NCBI GenBank assembly: GCA_030038645.1
Contig: JASHSR010000110.1
Coordinates: forward strand, 1 to 39,657
Length of the DNA: 39,657 nt
Direction of reading: 5' to 3'
Source of the DNA: Gammaproteobacteria bacterium
Lineage (GTDB): Bacteria > Pseudomonadota > Gammaproteobacteria > Steroidobacterales > Steroidobacteraceae
Position numbers and translations under genes: made by a program. Positions 1-8,621 of the stretch are shown piece after piece. The notes below the pieces were generated by a model. It was given only the letters and a program-made list of their open reading frames with translations, was not told the origin of the DNA and did no database searches. The stretch's first letter is position 1. Each line of letters starts with the position of its first letter.

Positions 1-49
1 CGCCCTTTAAGCGATGAGACTGCGGGTTCAAGTCCTGCCGCCGGCACCA
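1..49 (+). tRNA. 3' part of a tRNA-like gene truncated by the window edge; anticodon not safely assignable (loop reads CCTTTAA, which is UUU/Lys-like only if position 33 is C)
   Basis: T arm GCGGG-TTCAAGT-CCTGC (22-38), 3' acceptor strand CGCCGGC (39-45), discriminator A46, encoded CCA 47-49. The 5' half lies outside the window. Confidence 0.6.
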
Positions 50-58
50 CATGAATTT

Positions 59-146
59 GGAGAACAAAGCGGGCAGGGCTCGCACGCGATTGCTAATCGC
101 AGGGAACCGGAAACGGTTTGAGTTTCGAGTACTCTGTTCTCCGCCA
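59..146 (+). tRNA. tRNA-Ser(GCU)-like, class II (long variable arm), best folded with an 8-bp acceptor and a 4-bp T stem
   Basis: Acceptor GGAGAACA (59-66) pairs perfectly with TGTTCTCC (135-142). Anticodon loop TTGCTAA (90-96), anticodon GCT 92-94. Variable arm AACCG-GAAA-CGGTT (105-118). T arm GAGT-TTCGAGT-ACTC (120-134). G143 discriminator, CCA 144-146. Confidence 0.8.
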
Positions 147-153
147 ATCTTCT

Positions 154-242
154 GGATGGTGAAGCGCACAGGGTGCGCCGCCGGCCTGAGCCCGGACGGT
201 ACCGGCAACGGCATGTGGATCGTGTCCGACCGCCATCCGCCA
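154..242 (+). tRNA. tRNA-Ser(UGA)-like, non-canonical and possibly a pseudogene (C at position 33, weak T stem, bulged C)
   Basis: Acceptor GGATGGTG (154-161) pairs with CGCCATCC (231-238), including one G-U. D stem GCGCAC/GTGCGC is a perfect 6 bp. Anticodon loop CCTGAGC (185-191), TGA 187-189. T region GTGG-ATCGTGT-CCGA (215-229) gives only 3 pairs, then unpaired C230. G239, CCA 240-242. Confidence 0.55.
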
Positions 243-246
243 TTTT

Positions 247-334
247 GGAAGGTGAAGCCGTCAGGGTGCGGTCGCCGGCTCGAACCCGGTTGGTGCCTTC
301 GGGCATGGCTTTCGAGTAGTCCCGCCTTCCGCCA
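247..334 (+). tRNA. tRNA-Ser(CGA)-like, class II, with an 8-bp acceptor, one bulged C and a 4-bp T stem
   Basis: Acceptor GGAAGGTG (247-254) pairs with CGCCTTCC (323-330). Anticodon arm GCCGG-CTCGAAC-CCGGT, CGA at 281-283. Variable arm TGCC-TTCG-GGCA. T arm GGCT-TTCGAGT-AGTC (307-321). C322 unpaired. G331, CCA 332-334. Confidence 0.75.
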
Positions 335-338
335 TCTT

Positions 339-427
339 GGAGCGTAAACCGGTCAAGGTGCCGGGACCGGTTGGAAGCCGGATCGTGTCAGCGAAGGGGC
401 CTGTCTCGCTCGCAGTGCGCTCCACCA
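339..427 (+). tRNA. tRNA-Ser(GGA)-like, class II, 8/4 fold with an atypical T loop and an A discriminator
   Basis: Acceptor GGAGCGTA (339-346) pairs with TGCGCTCC (416-423). D stem CCGGT/GCCGG (349-353/360-364). Anticodon loop TTGGAAG (371-377), GGA 373-375. T arm CTGT-CTCGCTC-GCAG (401-415). A424, CCA 425-427. Confidence 0.6.
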
Positions 428-433
428 CTTTAT

Positions 434-504
434 GGGTCGCCCTCTGGGAGGTGCGAGGTCTCCAAAGCCTTGCTGGGTGCGTTCGATTCGTACGCGACCT
501 GCCA
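434..504 (+). tRNA. tRNA-Trp(CCA)-like, only 71 nt, with a truncated D arm
   Basis: Acceptor GGGTCGC (434-440) pairs with GCGACCT (494-500). Anticodon loop CTCCAAA (460-466) is identical to the E. coli tRNA-Trp loop. Canonical T arm GTGCG-TTCGATT-CGTAC (477-493). G501, CCA 502-504. Only 14 nt (441-454) lie between the acceptor and anticodon stems. Confidence 0.65.
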
Positions 505-509
505 ATTAC

Positions 510-585
510 TCAGGTGTGGGTTGCCGGTATCCCACTGCGGCTCTGAACCGCAGCCACGCAGGTCCGACTCCTGCCGCCTGATCCA
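510..585 (+). tRNA. tRNA-Gln(CUG)-like with no 8-9 linker before the D stem
   Basis: Acceptor TCAGGTG (510-516) pairs with CGCCTGA (575-581). D hairpin TGGG-N10-CCCA (517-534). Anticodon arm TGCGG-CTCTGAA-CCGCA (536-552). T arm GCAGG-TCCGACT-CCTGC (558-574). T582, CCA 583-585. Confidence 0.65.
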
Positions 586-587
586 AT

Positions 588-666
588 ACACGAGCCGTGG
601 GTTGCCGGCATCCCCGTTGGGCTTTGAACCCAAAGCACGCAGGTTCGACTCCTGCCTCGTGTTCCA
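588..666 (+). tRNA. tRNA-Gln(UUG)-like (79 nt, enlarged D region)
   Basis: Acceptor ACACGAG (588-594) pairs perfectly with CTCGTGT (656-662). Anticodon arm TTGGG-CTTTGAA-CCCAA (617-633). T arm GCAGG-TTCGACT-CCTGC (639-655). T663, CCA 664-666. Confidence 0.7.
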
Positions 667-903
667 TTTCGCCGCGGAAACGCGAGTCGCGACGCTTCCG
701 GGAACCGGTCGGGAGCGAGGCGGCCATGATGGGCCGCGCGCGGAGAGCGCTGGGCCCCGTAAGCTGCCATTCCGTAGATCGACCGAGCGCGCGGGGATCG
801 CGGGCGCGTCGTTCATTACCCCGTCGGATTCTCCAAAGAATCTGTCGGACTTTCGAAGTCGTGACAATGCTAATCTTCGCGAACCAGCCGAGGGGATCGA
901 GGG

Positions 904-1299
904 ATGGCTAACCACATCGCGCACTTCGAGATTTTCGCAAGCGACGTCGAGCGGGCTCGCAGATTCTATGAGAAAGTTTTCGCGTGGCGATTCGAGGTCG
1001 GCGGTCCGCCCGAGTTTTATCATATCTTCACCGGCCCTGCGGTCGAGCACGGCATCTCACGTGGCCTGATCGCGAAACGCCAAGGGCCCGTGGCGCAGGG
1101 CGGCATCAACGGCTTTCGCTGCACCATCAGCGTGAGCTCGATAAAGGAAACGGCGACGGCAATCGAGGCGGCCGGCGGCAAGCTGCGTTCGGCCATTGTC
1201 GATGTTCCCGGTGTGGGCAAAGTCGTTGAGTTCGCCGATCCCGAGGGCAACATCGCATGCGCGATGCAGTACGAATCGGGCTTCCGATTCACCGAGTAG
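904..1299 (+). CDS. VOC family protein (glyoxalase/bleomycin-resistance/dioxygenase fold), 131 aa
   Basis: ATG 904 preceded by GAGGGG. N-terminus HFEIFASDVERARRFYEKVF and C-terminal FADPEGN are typical of the VOC/glyoxalase fold. Confidence 0.85.
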   Translation: MANHIAHFEIFASDVERARRFYEKVFAWRFEVGGPPEFYHIFTGPAVEHGISRGLIAKRQGPVAQGGINGFRCTISVSSIKETATAIEAAGGKLRSAIVDVPGVGKVVEFADPEGNIACAMQYESGFRFTE

Positions 1300-4045: not shown

Positions 4046-5035
4046 TCAGCTTGTCTGTAGAGGTCCTGCCCCGCGGCGGCGCCACACCGAGGGTGGCACC
4101 CCCACCTGCTTCTTGAAGGCGCGACTGAACGCCGCCTCGGATTCGTACCCAATCTCTTCGGCGATCGATGCGATGTTCGCGCTCGCATCACTGAGAATCC
4201 GCGCCGCAATCTGCATTCGCCATTTGGCGAGATACTGTATCGGCGGCATCCCCAAAAGATCGGTGAAGCGCTCCGCCAGGACAGACCGCGACAAGCCGAC
4301 TCTCTTTCCCAGCTCCTCGATGGTCCAGCCATGCGCCGGATTGCCGTGCATCAGCGATAGCGCTCTGCCAACGAAAGGGTCGCGCAGGCCCGCCAACCAG
4401 CCCGCCTGCTCCGGCGGCATCGCCTCCAGATGTCGGCGCACCACTTCGATGAACATCAACTCGCTGAGTTTGGCGAGCACGCTCTCGCTGCCGGCGCGCC
4501 GGGCTGCCGATTCCGCTACGGCGACACGAATGAACCGAGCGAGCCAGTCTCCGGAGTCGTCCCGCGTAGCTCTTGCCTTCATCACCGCGGGCAGGTTCTC
4601 GAGCAGCGGATTGAACGGTCGCGCATCGCAGGCGAGGAAGCCACACACGAGCTTCGTTGTGGGCGCTCCCTCCCTGCCGTATTTGACGAAAAATGGCAAC
4701 GGACCGGCGCCCGCTTCCGCAATTGCCTCGCGTGTCGGCGGGTTGGCGCGCATACCGGGGCTGCTCGACATGACGTGTGGATCGCCATTGGTAATGACGA
4801 TGACCTCGCCGGCTTCGAGCGCGATCGGTTCCTTGCCAATGACGGTCGCGAAACATCGACCCACGGTGACGACATGGTAGGAGATAAGCCGCTCGCCACC
4901 CGGGAGTATCTTCGGCAGGATGAACTCTGGCGGCGGTTGCTCGACCACCCACGGCTCCGTCGCCGCGACGTCGAAGAACGTCGCGCCGGTCAGCCGCACG
5001 GTTCGCAGCAAATCAGACAGCGCATCGCTCGCCAT
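4046..5035 (-). CDS. AraC family transcriptional regulator with an N-terminal cupin-type sensor domain
   Basis: C-terminal AraC HTH (GLSRSVLAERFTDLLGMPPIQYLAKWRMQIAARIL...IGYESEAAFSRAFKKQVGVPPS). ATG 5035 has GGAG 5 nt upstream. The longest ORF begins at GTG 5053. Confidence 0.88.
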   Translation of the reverse strand: MASDALSDLLRTVRLTGATFFDVAATEPWVVEQPPPEFILPKILPGGERLISYHVVTVGRCFATVIGKEPIALEAGEVIVITNGDPHVMSSSPGMRANPPTREAIAEAGAGPLPFFVKYGREGAPTTKLVCGFLACDARPFNPLLENLPAVMKARATRDDSGDWLARFIRVAVAESAARRAGSESVLAKLSELMFIEVVRRHLEAMPPEQAGWLAGLRDPFVGRALSLMHGNPAHGWTIEELGKRVGLSRSVLAERFTDLLGMPPIQYLAKWRMQIAARILSDASANIASIAEEIGYESEAAFSRAFKKQVGVPPSVWRRRGAGPLQTS

Positions 5036-5197: not shown

Positions 5198-6013
5198 ATG
5201 AACCCGGGCACTATTGACCTTGATGCAATCAAGGCCCGACAGCACGGCGCGTGGAGTTCCGGCGATTATGCTGCTGTCGGCTGCACTTTACAGATCGTCG
5301 GCGAGACGCTTTGCGAGGCCGTCGATCTACGCTCCAATCAGCGGGTACTCGATGTCGCTGCCGGCAACGGAAATGCAACCCTGGCCGCCGCCCGTCGCTT
5401 CGCGGAGGTCGTATCGACGGACTACGTCGGATCGCTGCTGGAGCACGGGCGCAAGCGCGCCGAAGCGGACCGTTTGCCCGTCACGTTTCAGCAGGCAGAC
5501 GCCGAGCATCTGCCGTTTCCCGATGAGAGCTTCGATGTCGTGCTGTCCACATTTGGCGTCATGTTTACGCCGAATCAGGAGCAAGCGGCACGAGAGCTCA
5601 TACGCGTCTGCCGTCGAGGCGGCAAGATCGGGATGGCCAATTGGACGCCGGAAGGCTTCGTCGGCCGGCTGTTCAAGATCGTGGGCAAATACGTTCCACC
5701 TGCGCCGGGCGTGAAATCAGCCTTGCTATGGGGTACGAAGACCCATCTCGATGCGTTGTTCGGCGCGCAGGCGACGATCGCGGCGAAGAGCACGCATTTT
5801 ATTTTTCGCTACAAGTCGCCGGAGCATTGGATCGACTTCTTCCGCGCTCACTACGGACCGGTTCTGAAGGCCTTCGCGGCGCTCGACCCGGACGCAAGGG
5901 CAGGGCTCGAGGCCGATATTTACAACTTGCTTGATGAGCTCAACGTCGCGGAGGATGGAACGCTGGTCGTCCCGGGCGAGTATCTGGAAGTCGTTATGAC
6001 GAAGACGCGTTGA
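5198..6013 (+). CDS. Class I SAM-dependent methyltransferase
   Basis: ATG 5198 with GGGAG upstream. Motif I VLDVAAGNGNAT and post-I/II FDVVLSTFGVMF. The part of ORF 4430-6013 upstream of 5198 is antisense to the AraC gene and is not coding. Confidence 0.9.
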   Translation: MNPGTIDLDAIKARQHGAWSSGDYAAVGCTLQIVGETLCEAVDLRSNQRVLDVAAGNGNATLAAARRFAEVVSTDYVGSLLEHGRKRAEADRLPVTFQQADAEHLPFPDESFDVVLSTFGVMFTPNQEQAARELIRVCRRGGKIGMANWTPEGFVGRLFKIVGKYVPPAPGVKSALLWGTKTHLDALFGAQATIAAKSTHFIFRYKSPEHWIDFFRAHYGPVLKAFAALDPDARAGLEADIYNLLDELNVAEDGTLVVPGEYLEVVMTKTR

Positions 6014-6179: not shown

Positions 6180-7454
6180 TTACGCGACTTCGAGCGACGG
6201 CGGATTGAATGCATCAATCTCCTTCCAATCCTCACCGCGCGGATAGGCGAAGGAGATCGCGCGGATCTTGCCGAAGTCGACATCCTCTCCGGCGAAGGAG
6301 ATCTTGCCTTCGGCCTTGTACGCCTCGATGGCCCGCAGCAACATGCTCCGGGCCCGCAGGATCACCAGGTCGCACCTTCCCAGATGCTGCTTGCTGCGAT
6401 CGACGATCGGCCCCATCGACTCTTGGACGGCGAAATCTTCATAGGCGTTGCCTCGTCCGACGATCCCGCTCCAGTGGCCTCGTTTCATCGCCTCGCGATC
6501 CTGGTGCCACAGGTTGTCGCGGTTACCCATATCGGAGTTGAAGAAGTCGGGGTCGCCCGAATCGGAGCCGTAGATACCCGTGCGGTCGACGGGCATCGGC
6601 CCGTGAGCGTTGAAGCCGATGTACCACTGGGCCGTCCACTCATCGTCGATGGGGATGGAGCAGCACGCGAGCGCCGGCCCTCCGGGGGTCGCGGGGATGA
6701 ACGAGAAGAACGGCAGGGCGACCTCCCGGATGCGAGCATAGCAACGCCCGTTCGCCTGTTCGCGGAGCGCTCCTTCGCGGAAGCCATAAGGCTTGGCGAC
6801 AACCTCGAAAGTGGGCGCCGTGTTGTCGAGCATATAGTCGGATTCGACCTTGAAGACTTGCCGTCCGGCCGAGCTGCCGATATTGGAGGCATGCAGGAAG
6901 CTCACATGCGCGGAATCCAAGAGGGCCTCGAGCCCTTGCATCCAGTTGCAATGAATGATTCCGCGCCGGGGCGACACTTGATCGTCGGGCAAGCTCGTAA
7001 ACTCGAAGTCGGGGAACCTTGGCGGGCTCGCCTTGTTCTTGCCGAGATAGACCCAGACCAGCCCACCCGCCTCGTGAGTCGGATGGCTGCGCACGAGGAC
7101 GCCGGCGGCGAAGCGCTCGCGCCCGGCGCGCAGCTCGGTCGGCGCGTCGACGCACTTGCCGTCGACCGAGAACTTCCAGCCGTGAAAGATGCATCTCAGA
7201 CCGCCCGCCTCGTTCCTCGCGAGCGCGAGGCTGGCGCAGCGGTGCGGGCAGGCTTCCTGCATGAAACCGACGCGACCGTCGGTCGCGCGGAAAGCGACGA
7301 AGTTCTCGCCGAAGAGCCGTACTCGCTCGGGCGCGCCGTCGACCTCCAGCTTGGCCGAGCGGCAGGCCGGCACCCAGTACTCGCGCAGAAACTCGCCCAT
7401 CGGCGCGTCCGGCCCAACACGGGTCAGAAGCTCGTTGTGTTCGGGACTGAGCAT
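6180..7454 (-). CDS. Rieske [2Fe-2S] aromatic ring-hydroxylating oxygenase, alpha subunit-like
   Basis: Rieske motif CPHRCASL...CIFHGWKF. ATG 7454 is preceded by AGGAGG. No adjacent beta subunit or reductase gene. Confidence 0.9.
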   Translation of the reverse strand: MLSPEHNELLTRVGPDAPMGEFLREYWVPACRSAKLEVDGAPERVRLFGENFVAFRATDGRVGFMQEACPHRCASLALARNEAGGLRCIFHGWKFSVDGKCVDAPTELRAGRERFAAGVLVRSHPTHEAGGLVWVYLGKNKASPPRFPDFEFTSLPDDQVSPRRGIIHCNWMQGLEALLDSAHVSFLHASNIGSSAGRQVFKVESDYMLDNTAPTFEVVAKPYGFREGALREQANGRCYARIREVALPFFSFIPATPGGPALACCSIPIDDEWTAQWYIGFNAHGPMPVDRTGIYGSDSGDPDFFNSDMGNRDNLWHQDREAMKRGHWSGIVGRGNAYEDFAVQESMGPIVDRSKQHLGRCDLVILRARSMLLRAIEAYKAEGKISFAGEDVDFGKIRAISFAYPRGEDWKEIDAFNPPSLEVA

Positions 7455-7832
7455 ACTCGACCTCCTATTAAGCTCAGTATCGCCGGCGGCCGAGCAATGG
7501 CTGGGCCGGCGCAGCCATCCCCCACGCAACGTCGGGCCTTACAGGTCTATTGGACGTGCGACTGGTCGATAGGCTCTGATTCGTTGATGCTATCACCGAA
7601 TCCATTTCGACCCCAAGATGGTCCCGAATCTCGGTCGCGGGTCGTTTTCACGGCGCGTCTGTCCAAGCTGACTCACAACGCGCTGATGCGGCGGGCCAGG
7701 CGGTCGAAGGCAGCGCCATCGGTCCGGTGGGGGCGCCCGGCGACCGGCGCCGTGGCTGTTTGACTGCTGTGTCGCCCGGTGGCACGCTTGCGCGAATTCA
7801 ACAATGTCGCCGGAGAAGCGCAGAGGGGCGCC

Positions 7833-8621
7833 ATGTTGTCGTATCGTCATGCCCCGACAGCTATTGTCCTGCTATCCACAGCGCTCGTCGCCGCCACGGC
7901 GCAGCCGGTACCGGTGCCTCCCGGCGCCAATACCAATCCTCCCGGCCGCGCGGCGCTCGTGCCGAATATGAGTTGTGGGCAGTCGTACTCGCCGACATGG
8001 GACAGTTGCATAGGCGCGGTCAGATATCCGAATGGCAACGTCTATCGCGGCGAATACCACCACGGGATGCGCGACGGTTTCGGTTTCATCGTCATCAACG
8101 CTCACGGCGTTTCCGACAAAAACAACATACTTTCAAATGAGCGATCGATCTACGCCGGCGAGTTCCATGACGACAGGCTCAATGGCCGTGGAGTCTGGTT
8201 CACGATCGGCGGAGCGGGATATTCGGGGACATTCAAGGACAACATTCCGCAGTCCGACGTGCGGCAAAGGAATTGCGGCGGCGACCCGGCTTCGTGGAGC
8301 AATTGCGTTGCAGCGATTCGCTACGGGAACGGGAATCTCTACCGTGGGGAATTCATGCACGGCCACCGGGATGGGATCGGCATGCTGGAGATTCACGCGA
8401 CGGGCGTCCCTGATGATCGAAATATTCGCACGCCAGCGCCGGGGATCTACGTTGGCGAATTCCAGGACGATCGACTGAACGGACGAGGAATGATCTTCAT
8501 TCCAGGGGGCGGCTTCTACGGCAGCTTCAAGAATAACGTATTGATGCCCACGGCCCACGCCGCTCTTACGCAAGCGGGCCCGAGCGGACGGGCGGGTGCG
8601 ACGCGGCGTGCCGGTGGCTAA
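7833..8621 (+). CDS. Secreted MORN-repeat protein (internally duplicated)
   Basis: Signal-like N-terminus MLSYRHAPTAIVLLSTALVAATAQP. Repeated YRGEYHHGMRDGFG / YAGEFHDDRLNGRG / YSGTFKDN units (MORN consensus YxGxxxxGxxxGxG). ATG 7833 with GAGGGG upstream. Confidence 0.8.
   Translation: MLSYRHAPTAIVLLSTALVAATAQPVPVPPGANTNPPGRAALVPNMSCGQSYSPTWDSCIGAVRYPNGNVYRGEYHHGMRDGFGFIVINAHGVSDKNNILSNERSIYAGEFHDDRLNGRGVWFTIGGAGYSGTFKDNIPQSDVRQRNCGGDPASWSNCVAAIRYGNGNLYRGEFMHGHRDGIGMLEIHATGVPDDRNIRTPAPGIYVGEFQDDRLNGRGMIFIPGGGFYGSFKNNVLMPTAHAALTQAGPSGRAGATRRAGG

Follow-up and report, generated by a model that had tools for sequence, protein, structure and literature searches.

Four tandem serine tRNA genes on the 8/4 plan within a long tRNA array shared by soil metagenomes, phages and Steroidobacteraceae

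At the start of contig JASHSR010000110.1 (Gammaproteobacteria bacterium, family Steroidobacteraceae, assembly GCA_030038645.1), whose 39,657 nt are referred to here as the window, four serine tRNA genes stand in a row, and the question that they raise is whether they fold like canonical bacterial tRNA-Ser, with 7 base pairs (bp) in the acceptor stem and 5 in the T stem (7/5), or with 8 and 4 pairs (8/4), as a preliminary description of the window had proposed. Our analysis makes it very likely that window 59-427 encodes four serine isoacceptors on the 8/4 plan, which would be charged by seryl-tRNA synthetase (SerRS), read serine codons and form a supernumerary set carried by a mobile array. 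The stretch consists of four tandem tRNA units of 88-89 nt, with spacers of 4-7 nt and a CCA end encoded in each, and their anticodons are, in order, GCU, UGA, CGA and GGA, all serine; these make up the standard bacterial set of four serine isoacceptors. The units are listed here with their scores under R2, a covariance model built solely from an alignment (A3) of homologues from other loci:

59-146, + strand: unit 1, (8/4) tRNA-Ser(GCU); R2 78.1 bits, and minimum-energy fold
154-242, + strand: unit 2, (8/4) tRNA-Ser(UGA); R2 69.8 bits
247-334, + strand: unit 3, (8/4) tRNA-Ser(CGA); R2 79.8 bits
339-427, + strand: unit 4, (8/4) tRNA-Ser(GGA), the most deviant of the four; R2 55.6 bits, the lowest

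What had been described for unit 1 is all present in the sequence: an acceptor of 8 bp (GGAGAACA, 59-66, with TGTTCTCC, 135-142), the D arm GCGGGC-AGG-GCTCGC (stem 69-74/78-83, loop AGG), a T stem of 4 bp (GAGT/ACTC, 120-123/131-134), and the T-T mismatch of a 7/5 drawing, in which U119 would face U135. The unit is completed by an AA linker (67-68), an anticodon stem at 86-89/97-100 to which C85-G102 is added with A101 bulged, the anticodon at 92-94, a variable (V) arm at 104-109/114-119, the T loop UUCGAGU, G143 and the CCA at 144-146. Folded without constraints, the unit reaches its energy minimum precisely in the 8/4 cloverleaf (z = -4.1); for units 2-4, single-sequence folding energies carry no significance (z = -0.5 to -1.4). 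Unit 2 has an 8-bp acceptor (154-161/231-238), the D stem GCGCAC/GTGCGC (164-169/173-178) with loop AGG, an anticodon stem (181-184/192-195) prolonged by 180-197 and 179-198 past a bulged A196, its anticodon at 187-189, a V arm at 199-204/209-214, the T loop AUCGUGU, G239 and the CCA at 240-242. Unit 3 likewise pairs 8 bp in the acceptor (247-254/323-330), with the D stem GCCGT/GCGGT (257-261/268-272, loop CAGGGU), an anticodon stem at 274-278/286-290, the anticodon at 281-283, a V arm at 293-297/302-306 closed by a UUCG loop, G331 and the CCA at 332-334. Unit 4 shows the 8-bp acceptor (GGAGCGTA/TGCGCTCC, 339-346/416-423) and the T stem CTGT/GCAG (401-404/412-415) with which it had been drawn, together with a D stem at 349-353/360-364, an anticodon stem at 367-370/378-381 continued by 366-383 and 365-384 with A382 bulged, the anticodon at 373-375 and the CCA at 425-427.

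The most conventional alternative is that these are ordinary 7/5 class II tRNA-Ser genes with a mismatch at 49:65 and some extra pairing in the D arm, the eighth acceptor pair being fortuitous. In single sequences the 8/4 drawing gains just 1-3 kcal/mol over the 7/5 one, and canonical 7/5 tRNA-Ser genes do occupy the same slots elsewhere. For comparison, homologous arrays are available on over 100 contigs from soil metagenomes, phages and Steroidobacteraceae. These were collected with a 31-nt pattern in the neighbouring Gln tRNAs, whose conserved D arm GGGTTGCCGGYATCCC provides the anchor, a choice that leaves the serine units unbiased. A pattern in the serine D arm, GGANNNNNAAGCNNNCAGGGYKCG, had given 50 matches on viral contigs, of which just 2 were real (the diverged arrays L014 and L056); it was dropped in favour of the Gln anchor because it was too unspecific and would bias the covariation of the D stem. 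The anchor scan led to 7 representative genomes in GTDB, to 100 contigs from soil metagenomes and to 8 from IMG/VR, and all seven GTDB genomes with the array are metagenome-assembled genomes (MAGs) of Steroidobacteraceae or Gammaproteobacteria, one of their arrays lying on a 1.25-Mb contig (that behind locus L074).

A first covariance model (R1, from alignment A1) was made from 12 seed units with an 8/4 structure, the window units among them, and its search gave 252 matches in 100 sources; matches of 73 nt at about 35 bits turned out to be ordinary 7/5 tRNA-Lys(UUU) genes. The best 150 of the 252 matches form alignment A2 and amount to 96 distinct sequences, to which all counts out of 96 below refer. 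Because the window units had seeded A1, alignment A3 was made without window sequences: it comprises 135 matches, 114 of them distinct, none from the window or from loci L001-L010. Under the 8/4 structure, 95.5% of the modelled pairs in A2 are standard pairs and the covariation score is 0.676, against 0.214 for column shuffles and at most 0.18 for slid partners; A3 gives 95.0% and 0.689. R2 picks exactly these four units out of the 39.6-kb window, at 55.6-79.8 bits (E 4e-12 to 3e-18), and its next-best match there reaches 14.7 bits.

The two plans part at the eighth acceptor pair, between nucleotide 8 and the nucleotide just 3' of the T stem, and this is one of the places where the preliminary description had recommended looking for compensatory changes. 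The pair forms in 96/96 sequences of A2 (GC 77, AU 13, UA 5, GU 1) and in 114/114 of A3, with five pair types, whereas the rival 7/5 pair 49:65 forms in 5/96, position 49 being U in 95/96 whatever its partner. Unit 1 and its allele in L004 are a case in point: at the eighth pair, A-U is replaced by G-C in L004, and in the T stem GGCC/GGUC takes the place of GAGU/ACUC. The long D stem, for which the same kind of support had been sought, also finds it: counted from the stem ends, it has 5-6 bp in 91/96 sequences, its four modelled pairs are 99% paired and all covary (4-6 pair types each), and so does the fifth (GC 69, CG 11, UA 6, GU 3, UG 3, AU 1), the commonest formats being 5 bp with a 6-nt loop (44 of 96), 6 bp with 3 nt (29) and 6 bp with 4 nt (13). 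The T stem is 99% paired across the family, as are the pairs of the V stem, which covary. On this basis, covariation over 96 to 114 distinct homologues argues overwhelmingly for 8/4 and rejects 7/5; we regard the latter reading as already refuted by these patterns of substitution and grant it next to no probability. The family provides strong natural covariation evidence for an 8/4 serine cloverleaf, drawn from more than 100 distinct sequences.

Canonical genes nevertheless do exist in the same arrays. In most arrays it is a canonical tRNA-Ser, of 7/5 build and with 3 bp in the D stem, that fills the Ser-UGA slot (L074:2657-2756 and about 12 other loci), and in L014 such a gene fills the Ser-GCU slot (5799-5886). 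Since both kinds fill the same slots, 7/5 and 8/4 serine genes are interchangeable within the array family, and these natural swaps, together with natural 8/4 scaffolds bearing all four serine anticodons, are suited to testing 8/4 geometry. A non-serine candidate for the same plan, the Asp(GUC) unit at L004:1349-1425, was set aside: ARAGORN misses it and its 8/4 drawing has an AU linker, a 5-bp D stem and an AGGU loop, but a 7/5 drawing in which the D stem has 6 bp fits equally well, the eighth pair being always G.U and 49:65 always capable of A-U, and the 8 distinct homologues show no covariation that would separate the two.

The blindness of standard tRNA finders to the window units also speaks against an ordinary 7/5 identity. 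ARAGORN run on the window reports just two downstream Gln tRNAs and none of the four serine units, and Rfam run on the whole window returns one tRNA only, at 595-663. Even at a permissive E <= 10 over positions 1-900, neither RF00005 (detection threshold 29 bits) nor the tRNA-Sec model RF01852 (gathering score 47 bits) matched any of units 1-4. The same holds for the family, as ARAGORN recognises 3 of the 96 distinct 8/4 units, and Rfam at gathering thresholds finds 95 tRNAs in 12 array loci with zero 8/4 serine units among them, RF01852 matching no such unit in these loci either. Because finders miss 8/4 genes, surveys and annotation would report such arrays, and possibly such phages, as lacking serine tRNAs; in one survey, tRNA-Ser is the isoacceptor least often present in arrays, with a frequency of 0.36 (PMC8421152).

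Within the 8/4 plan, the homologues also refine the fold. The 8-bp acceptors and D stems first drawn for units 2 and 3 stand, but the unpaired C that had been placed at 230 and 322 does not. Where an extra nucleotide is present, in 28 distinct relatives, all four pairs of a 4-bp T stem form in 28/28 if its 3' strand is drawn with a bulge, and leaving the last C unpaired instead lets the outer two pairs form in just 2/28 and 11/28. Judged on the window sequences only, these drawings are about 1 kcal/mol apart. Units 2 and 3 are accordingly better drawn, on this comparison of relatives, with G228 and U320 bulged and C230 and C322 paired, so that 215-218 would pair with 226, 227, 229 and 230 in unit 2, and 307-310 with 318, 319, 321 and 322 in unit 3. 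The top of a 5-bp anticodon stem is often mismatched, 29:45 being unpaired in 65/96, and pairs past a bulged nucleotide are found there with a geometry that depends on the class: 29:46 and 28:47 in 28/29 of the GGA class, 29:46 in 31/31 of the GCU class and 28:47 in 28/31 of the CGA class. Such pairs may lengthen the anticodon stem, which would recall tRNA-Sec and the allo-tRNAs. In the T loop, a T54-A58 pair is normally universal. Here positions 54/58 (A2 columns 77 and 81) vary by isoacceptor, being U/A in GCU, A/A in CGA, C/G in GGA and mostly A/U in UGA units; U55 and C56 are retained in 89/96, and the GG of the D loop (G18/G19) is also kept.

What, then, would such tRNAs carry and read? 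The anticodons of the 96 distinct sequences are CGA in 31, GCU in 31, GGA in 29 and UGA in 5, and none is non-serine. G73 and the AA linker are each present in 95/96 sequences, G1-C72 and G2-C71 without exception and A3-U70 in 93/96; a long V arm, G73 and the G1-C72/G2-C71/A3-U70 set are known SerRS identity features (PMC7609411). An (8/4) tRNA-Ser class was described in 2017 from phage and proteobacterial tRNA clusters, and 8/4 tRNAs were found to be processed, serylated and used in translation in E. coli (Mukai et al. 2017, Nucleic Acids Res; PMC5389517). As in that class, the 12-bp branch of the units is divided 8/4, their D stem is long and its loop short, their V arm is long, position 73 is G, the anticodons are those of serine, the genes lie in tRNA clusters and standard searches fail to find them (PMC5389517); judged by these described features, the units are (8/4) tRNA-Ser genes of this kind.

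The class has been known since 2017; what is new here is a large subfamily in which the T stem can bulge in its 3' strand, the T loop varies with the class and the isoacceptor set stands complete in a single array. Indeed, the bulge described by Mukai et al. (A51a) lies in the 5' strand of Cys and Sec species, and in the present family the CGA and UGA classes have theirs in the 3' strand; the nucleotides at T-loop positions 54/58 depend on the isoacceptor here, unlike in their class; and the present array, unlike theirs, has all four serine isoacceptors side by side among about 38 units. Our literature search found no later paper on 8/4 tRNA-Ser in arrays. It follows from these assignments that a widespread array family of soil and phages draws serine tRNAs from the 8/4 class.

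The preliminary description had rightly connected the units with the work of Mukai et al., citing forms from certain bacteria and phages and from Acidobacteria; the serine anticodon of every family member sets the units apart from the acidobacterial suppressor or regulatory allo-tRNAs. A reading of the four genes as recoding or regulatory RNAs (suppressors, or RNAs associated with toxin-antitoxin systems), or as relatives of tRNA-Sec, could appeal to the shared 8-bp acceptor, long D stem, apparently extended anticodon stem and long V arm (PMC5389517). Allo-tRNAs of the (8/4) type have G73 or U73, and a 6-bp D stem with a tetraloop, when the family here mostly has 5 bp with 6 nt or 6 bp with 3 nt (PMC5389517). 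With 96/96 serine anticodons and serine identity elements, nothing appears to be recoded, and toxin-antitoxin genes are not among the recurrent neighbours.

As for tRNA-Sec (RF01852), the likeness that had been noted is borne out in the architecture: in both, the acceptor has 8 bp, the D stem is of the 6-bp type and its loop small, the anticodon stem is extended (in the units, possibly so), the V arm is long and position 73 is G, and SerRS, which serylates tRNA-Sec as a first step, is predicted to serylate the units. By comparison, the branch of tRNA-Sec counts 13 bp (8/5) and its anticodon is UCA, the units having 12 bp (8/4) and serine anticodons, and the tRNA-Sec covariance model matches none of them, as said above. 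The resemblance is architectural only, and a recoding, regulatory or selenocysteine role seems to us very improbable. With canonical class II tRNA-Ser (7/5; RF00005), the units have in common the four anticodons of the E. coli set, a long V arm, G73, an acceptor starting with GGA, G18/G19 and U55/C56; they differ from it by 8/4 instead of 7/5, by AA instead of a U8-N9 linker and by a D stem of 5-6 bp, where the canonical one has 3-4 bp and a large loop.

We propose the following functioning for the quartet. Transcription of the array would yield a single precursor, from which RNase P and 3' nucleases would release the units, and the units would be charged by SerRS through their long V arm, G73 and acceptor identity pairs. 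Stacked on the 4-bp T stem, the 8-bp acceptor keeps the usual 12-bp acceptor branch, and because this length is preserved, and acceptance was shown for other 8/4 tRNAs in E. coli (PMC5389517), EF-Tu and the ribosome could be expected to accept the units. These would then decode the six serine codons as serine and form a supernumerary set, foreign in origin, which by analogy with other long arrays might come into play upon induction of the array, for instance during translational stress or phage infection. Long arrays spread horizontally, and some are induced under translational stress (PMC8421152, 2021).

Several points weigh against this proposal, and some of them would suit decaying or unexpressed pseudogenes in a cryptic, horizontally acquired array, an alternative that the preliminary description had itself raised. 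Long tRNA arrays are often poorly transcribed, to the point of being nearly silent (PMC8421152), and inactive allo-tRNA-like genes were found by Mukai et al. (PMC5389517). Unit 4 has A73 as discriminator (A424), the sole case among the 96 sequences, a T loop, CUCGCUC, without U54/A58, a weak V arm of 3 bp (387-389/398-400), a competing long hairpin (idx 48-76) in its minimum-energy fold and the lowest R2 score of the quartet. Unit 2 has a mismatch in its V arm and C186 at position 33, a deviation already pointed out from the sequence and found in 7/96 of the family; moreover, its allele in the MAG L003 (GCA_030045435.1) carries G173A, G183C and G190C (window-equivalent positions), which break the sixth D pair and one pair of the anticodon stem, and reflect either relaxed constraint or errors in the MAG consensus. 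Finally, A2 and A3 were fitted to an 8/4 model, which favours 8/4 somewhat, but the test of the eighth pair rests solely on fixed distances from the ends and the T loop.

Against pseudogenes, all five helices are kept by compensatory change in more than 100 distinct sequences, the anticodons are exclusively serine, and G73, G18/G19 and U55/C56 are conserved; such purifying selection on all helices and identity elements argues against pseudogene status for the family as a whole. Besides, single-nucleotide polymorphisms (SNPs) between strains restore or keep pairing, those of sister strains at 182 (C>U) and 232 (G>A) keeping or improving the pairing of unit 2, and those at 356 (A>G) and 405 (C>U) bringing unit 4 back to the family consensus. 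In a by-eye reading of the anticodons, moreover, all 20 amino acids are represented in the array, and no serine tRNA is present in it apart from the quartet. On balance, decay is unlikely for the family, given the covariation, and conceivable for unit 4, which may be impaired by its A73, odd T loop and weak V arm, and less so for unit 2. The reading of the quartet as serine-decoding 8/4 tRNAs is the one that we retain.

The array in which the quartet lies extends beyond the window. Loci L004 and L005, from the same population as the window, reach 4.5 kb further upstream, so that the window starts inside a long array; in L004 (1186-4319) this array has about 38 co-oriented units in 3.1 kb, of which the window holds the last ~670 nt (1-666), with 7 complete units. 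The tally combines 20 genes found by ARAGORN in L004, several added by Rfam, and leftover gaps of 70-90 nt read as tRNA. Besides the quartet, the part of the array within the window consists of:

1-50, + strand: 3' portion of the preceding array unit, Lys-UUU-like with a CCA end, read by eye; its 5' part lies outside the window
433-503, + strand: irregular tRNA-Trp(CCA)-like unit, from its fold; weak RF01852 match (23.6 bits)
510-585, + strand: tRNA-Gln(CUG), by ARAGORN
588-666, + strand: tRNA-Gln(UUG), by ARAGORN; Rfam 30 bits

A Lys-UUU unit precedes Ser-GCU in related arrays also. In the Trp-like unit, the acceptor passes into the D stem without an 8-9 linker, that stem having 4 bp and a loop of 3 nt, and the anticodon stem is 7 bp long; the unit is about 80% identical to the annotated tRNA-Trp of Acinetobacter myophages of about 100 kb; in a blastn search with window 1-670, GenBank phages match this unit alone and plasmids give no match. 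Many units of the L004 array are irregular, with low Rfam scores, T loops UGCAAGU or UGCGAGU (position 55 = G) and odd D arms.

An L-array is a run of 20 or more co-oriented tRNA genes with 2 or more of them per kb, and with its roughly 38 units in 3.1 kb of L004 the array is of this type. It shares with L-arrays (PMC8421152) and with tRNA array units (Tran et al. 2016, PMC4758250) its dozens of co-oriented, closely spaced genes and its supernumerary, patchy occurrence in association with phages or mobile DNA; the available text of the L-array paper makes no mention of 8/4 members. Unlike the L-arrays described, the present family comes from soil metagenomes and Steroidobacteraceae MAGs and has many irregular tRNAs. 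Its matches fall both on IMG/VR contigs and on Steroidobacteraceae chromosomal contigs, and in L014 a gene for a terminase large subunit (6435-8066; phrog_38, E 3.5e-81) directly follows the array, which places some arrays of the family on phage genomes. From these occurrences, the array family appears patchily distributed and horizontally mobile.

At the level of the population, the window differs from L001-L010 from position 1 to about 146 (the Lys-like unit and Ser-GCU), and shows just 1-6 differences over ~147-903. Since the sequence before ~146 departs from these loci, the Ser-GCU of the window is a different allele; it resembles that of L128. Such a switch near 146 points to recombination of one array with another, or else to a join made at a repeat during assembly. 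A sigma-70 scan found no promoter-like site upstream of or inside the array, a result uninformative on expression, and there is no excess of terminator-like sites inside the array.

The association with phages gives some room to another possibility, namely that the units are functional tRNA-shaped RNAs whose main role is other than decoding, either as decoys or replacements that escape nucleases in phage-host conflict, or as substrates of Ro60/TROVE proteins. Besides the terminase gene that adjoins the array in L014, it can be noted that a TROVE/Ro60-like protein with a vWA domain is encoded within or beside the array in 15 loci (L165:6471-7799 and 14 others), about 2 kb upstream of the Gln anchor and on the same strand (PF05731, PF13519; phrog_850 'RNA-binding protein', E 1.4e-49). 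Y RNAs, the ligands of Ro60 homologues, carry tRNA-like modules. One paper also calls tRNA arrays putative anti-defence systems (PMC12803027). Yet the anticodon loops are conventional, and roles of this kind are compatible with ordinary decoding rather than opposed to it; as the main function, we hold them to be quite improbable.

A related but more speculative extension of the decoding reading, to which we give a low probability, would see in the 8/4 plan an adaptive hallmark of the serine tRNAs of mobile and phage arrays, compatible with SerRS, EF-Tu and the ribosome while altering the acceptor/T/D geometry seen by tRNA-targeting nucleases or other host factors. If this were the case, published surveys of arrays would have systematically under-counted tRNA-Ser, since finders miss 8/4 genes (3/96 with ARAGORN, 0 with Rfam).

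With regard to the wider neighbourhood, the genes flanking the window array include none common to any other array locus. An ADOP-type permease and BlaR/BlaI genes among the neighbours pointed at first to a host in Acidobacteriota, but the GTDB genomes with the array are all of Steroidobacteraceae or Gammaproteobacteria, though their arrays have different flanks. Just downstream of the array, the gene at 904-1299 is found also on the same-population contigs L001-L010, and in the window population the last protein gene before the array encodes a NUDIX hydrolase with an N-terminal zinc ribbon, NudC-like by Pfam (L004:200-736). In L158 (~930-2072) and ~67-74 other loci, thus in most loci but not in the window, a conserved SPFH/Band 7 gene (PF01145, E 3.5e-23) lies directly 3' of the Gln-Gln end. 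Lastly, open reading frames of 128-232 codons are called across the array itself (L004:3265-3867 and 4083-4469, both on the - strand; window 371-1069 on the + strand and 430-1050 on the - strand); these are almost certainly spurious, yet they stand in public protein collections.

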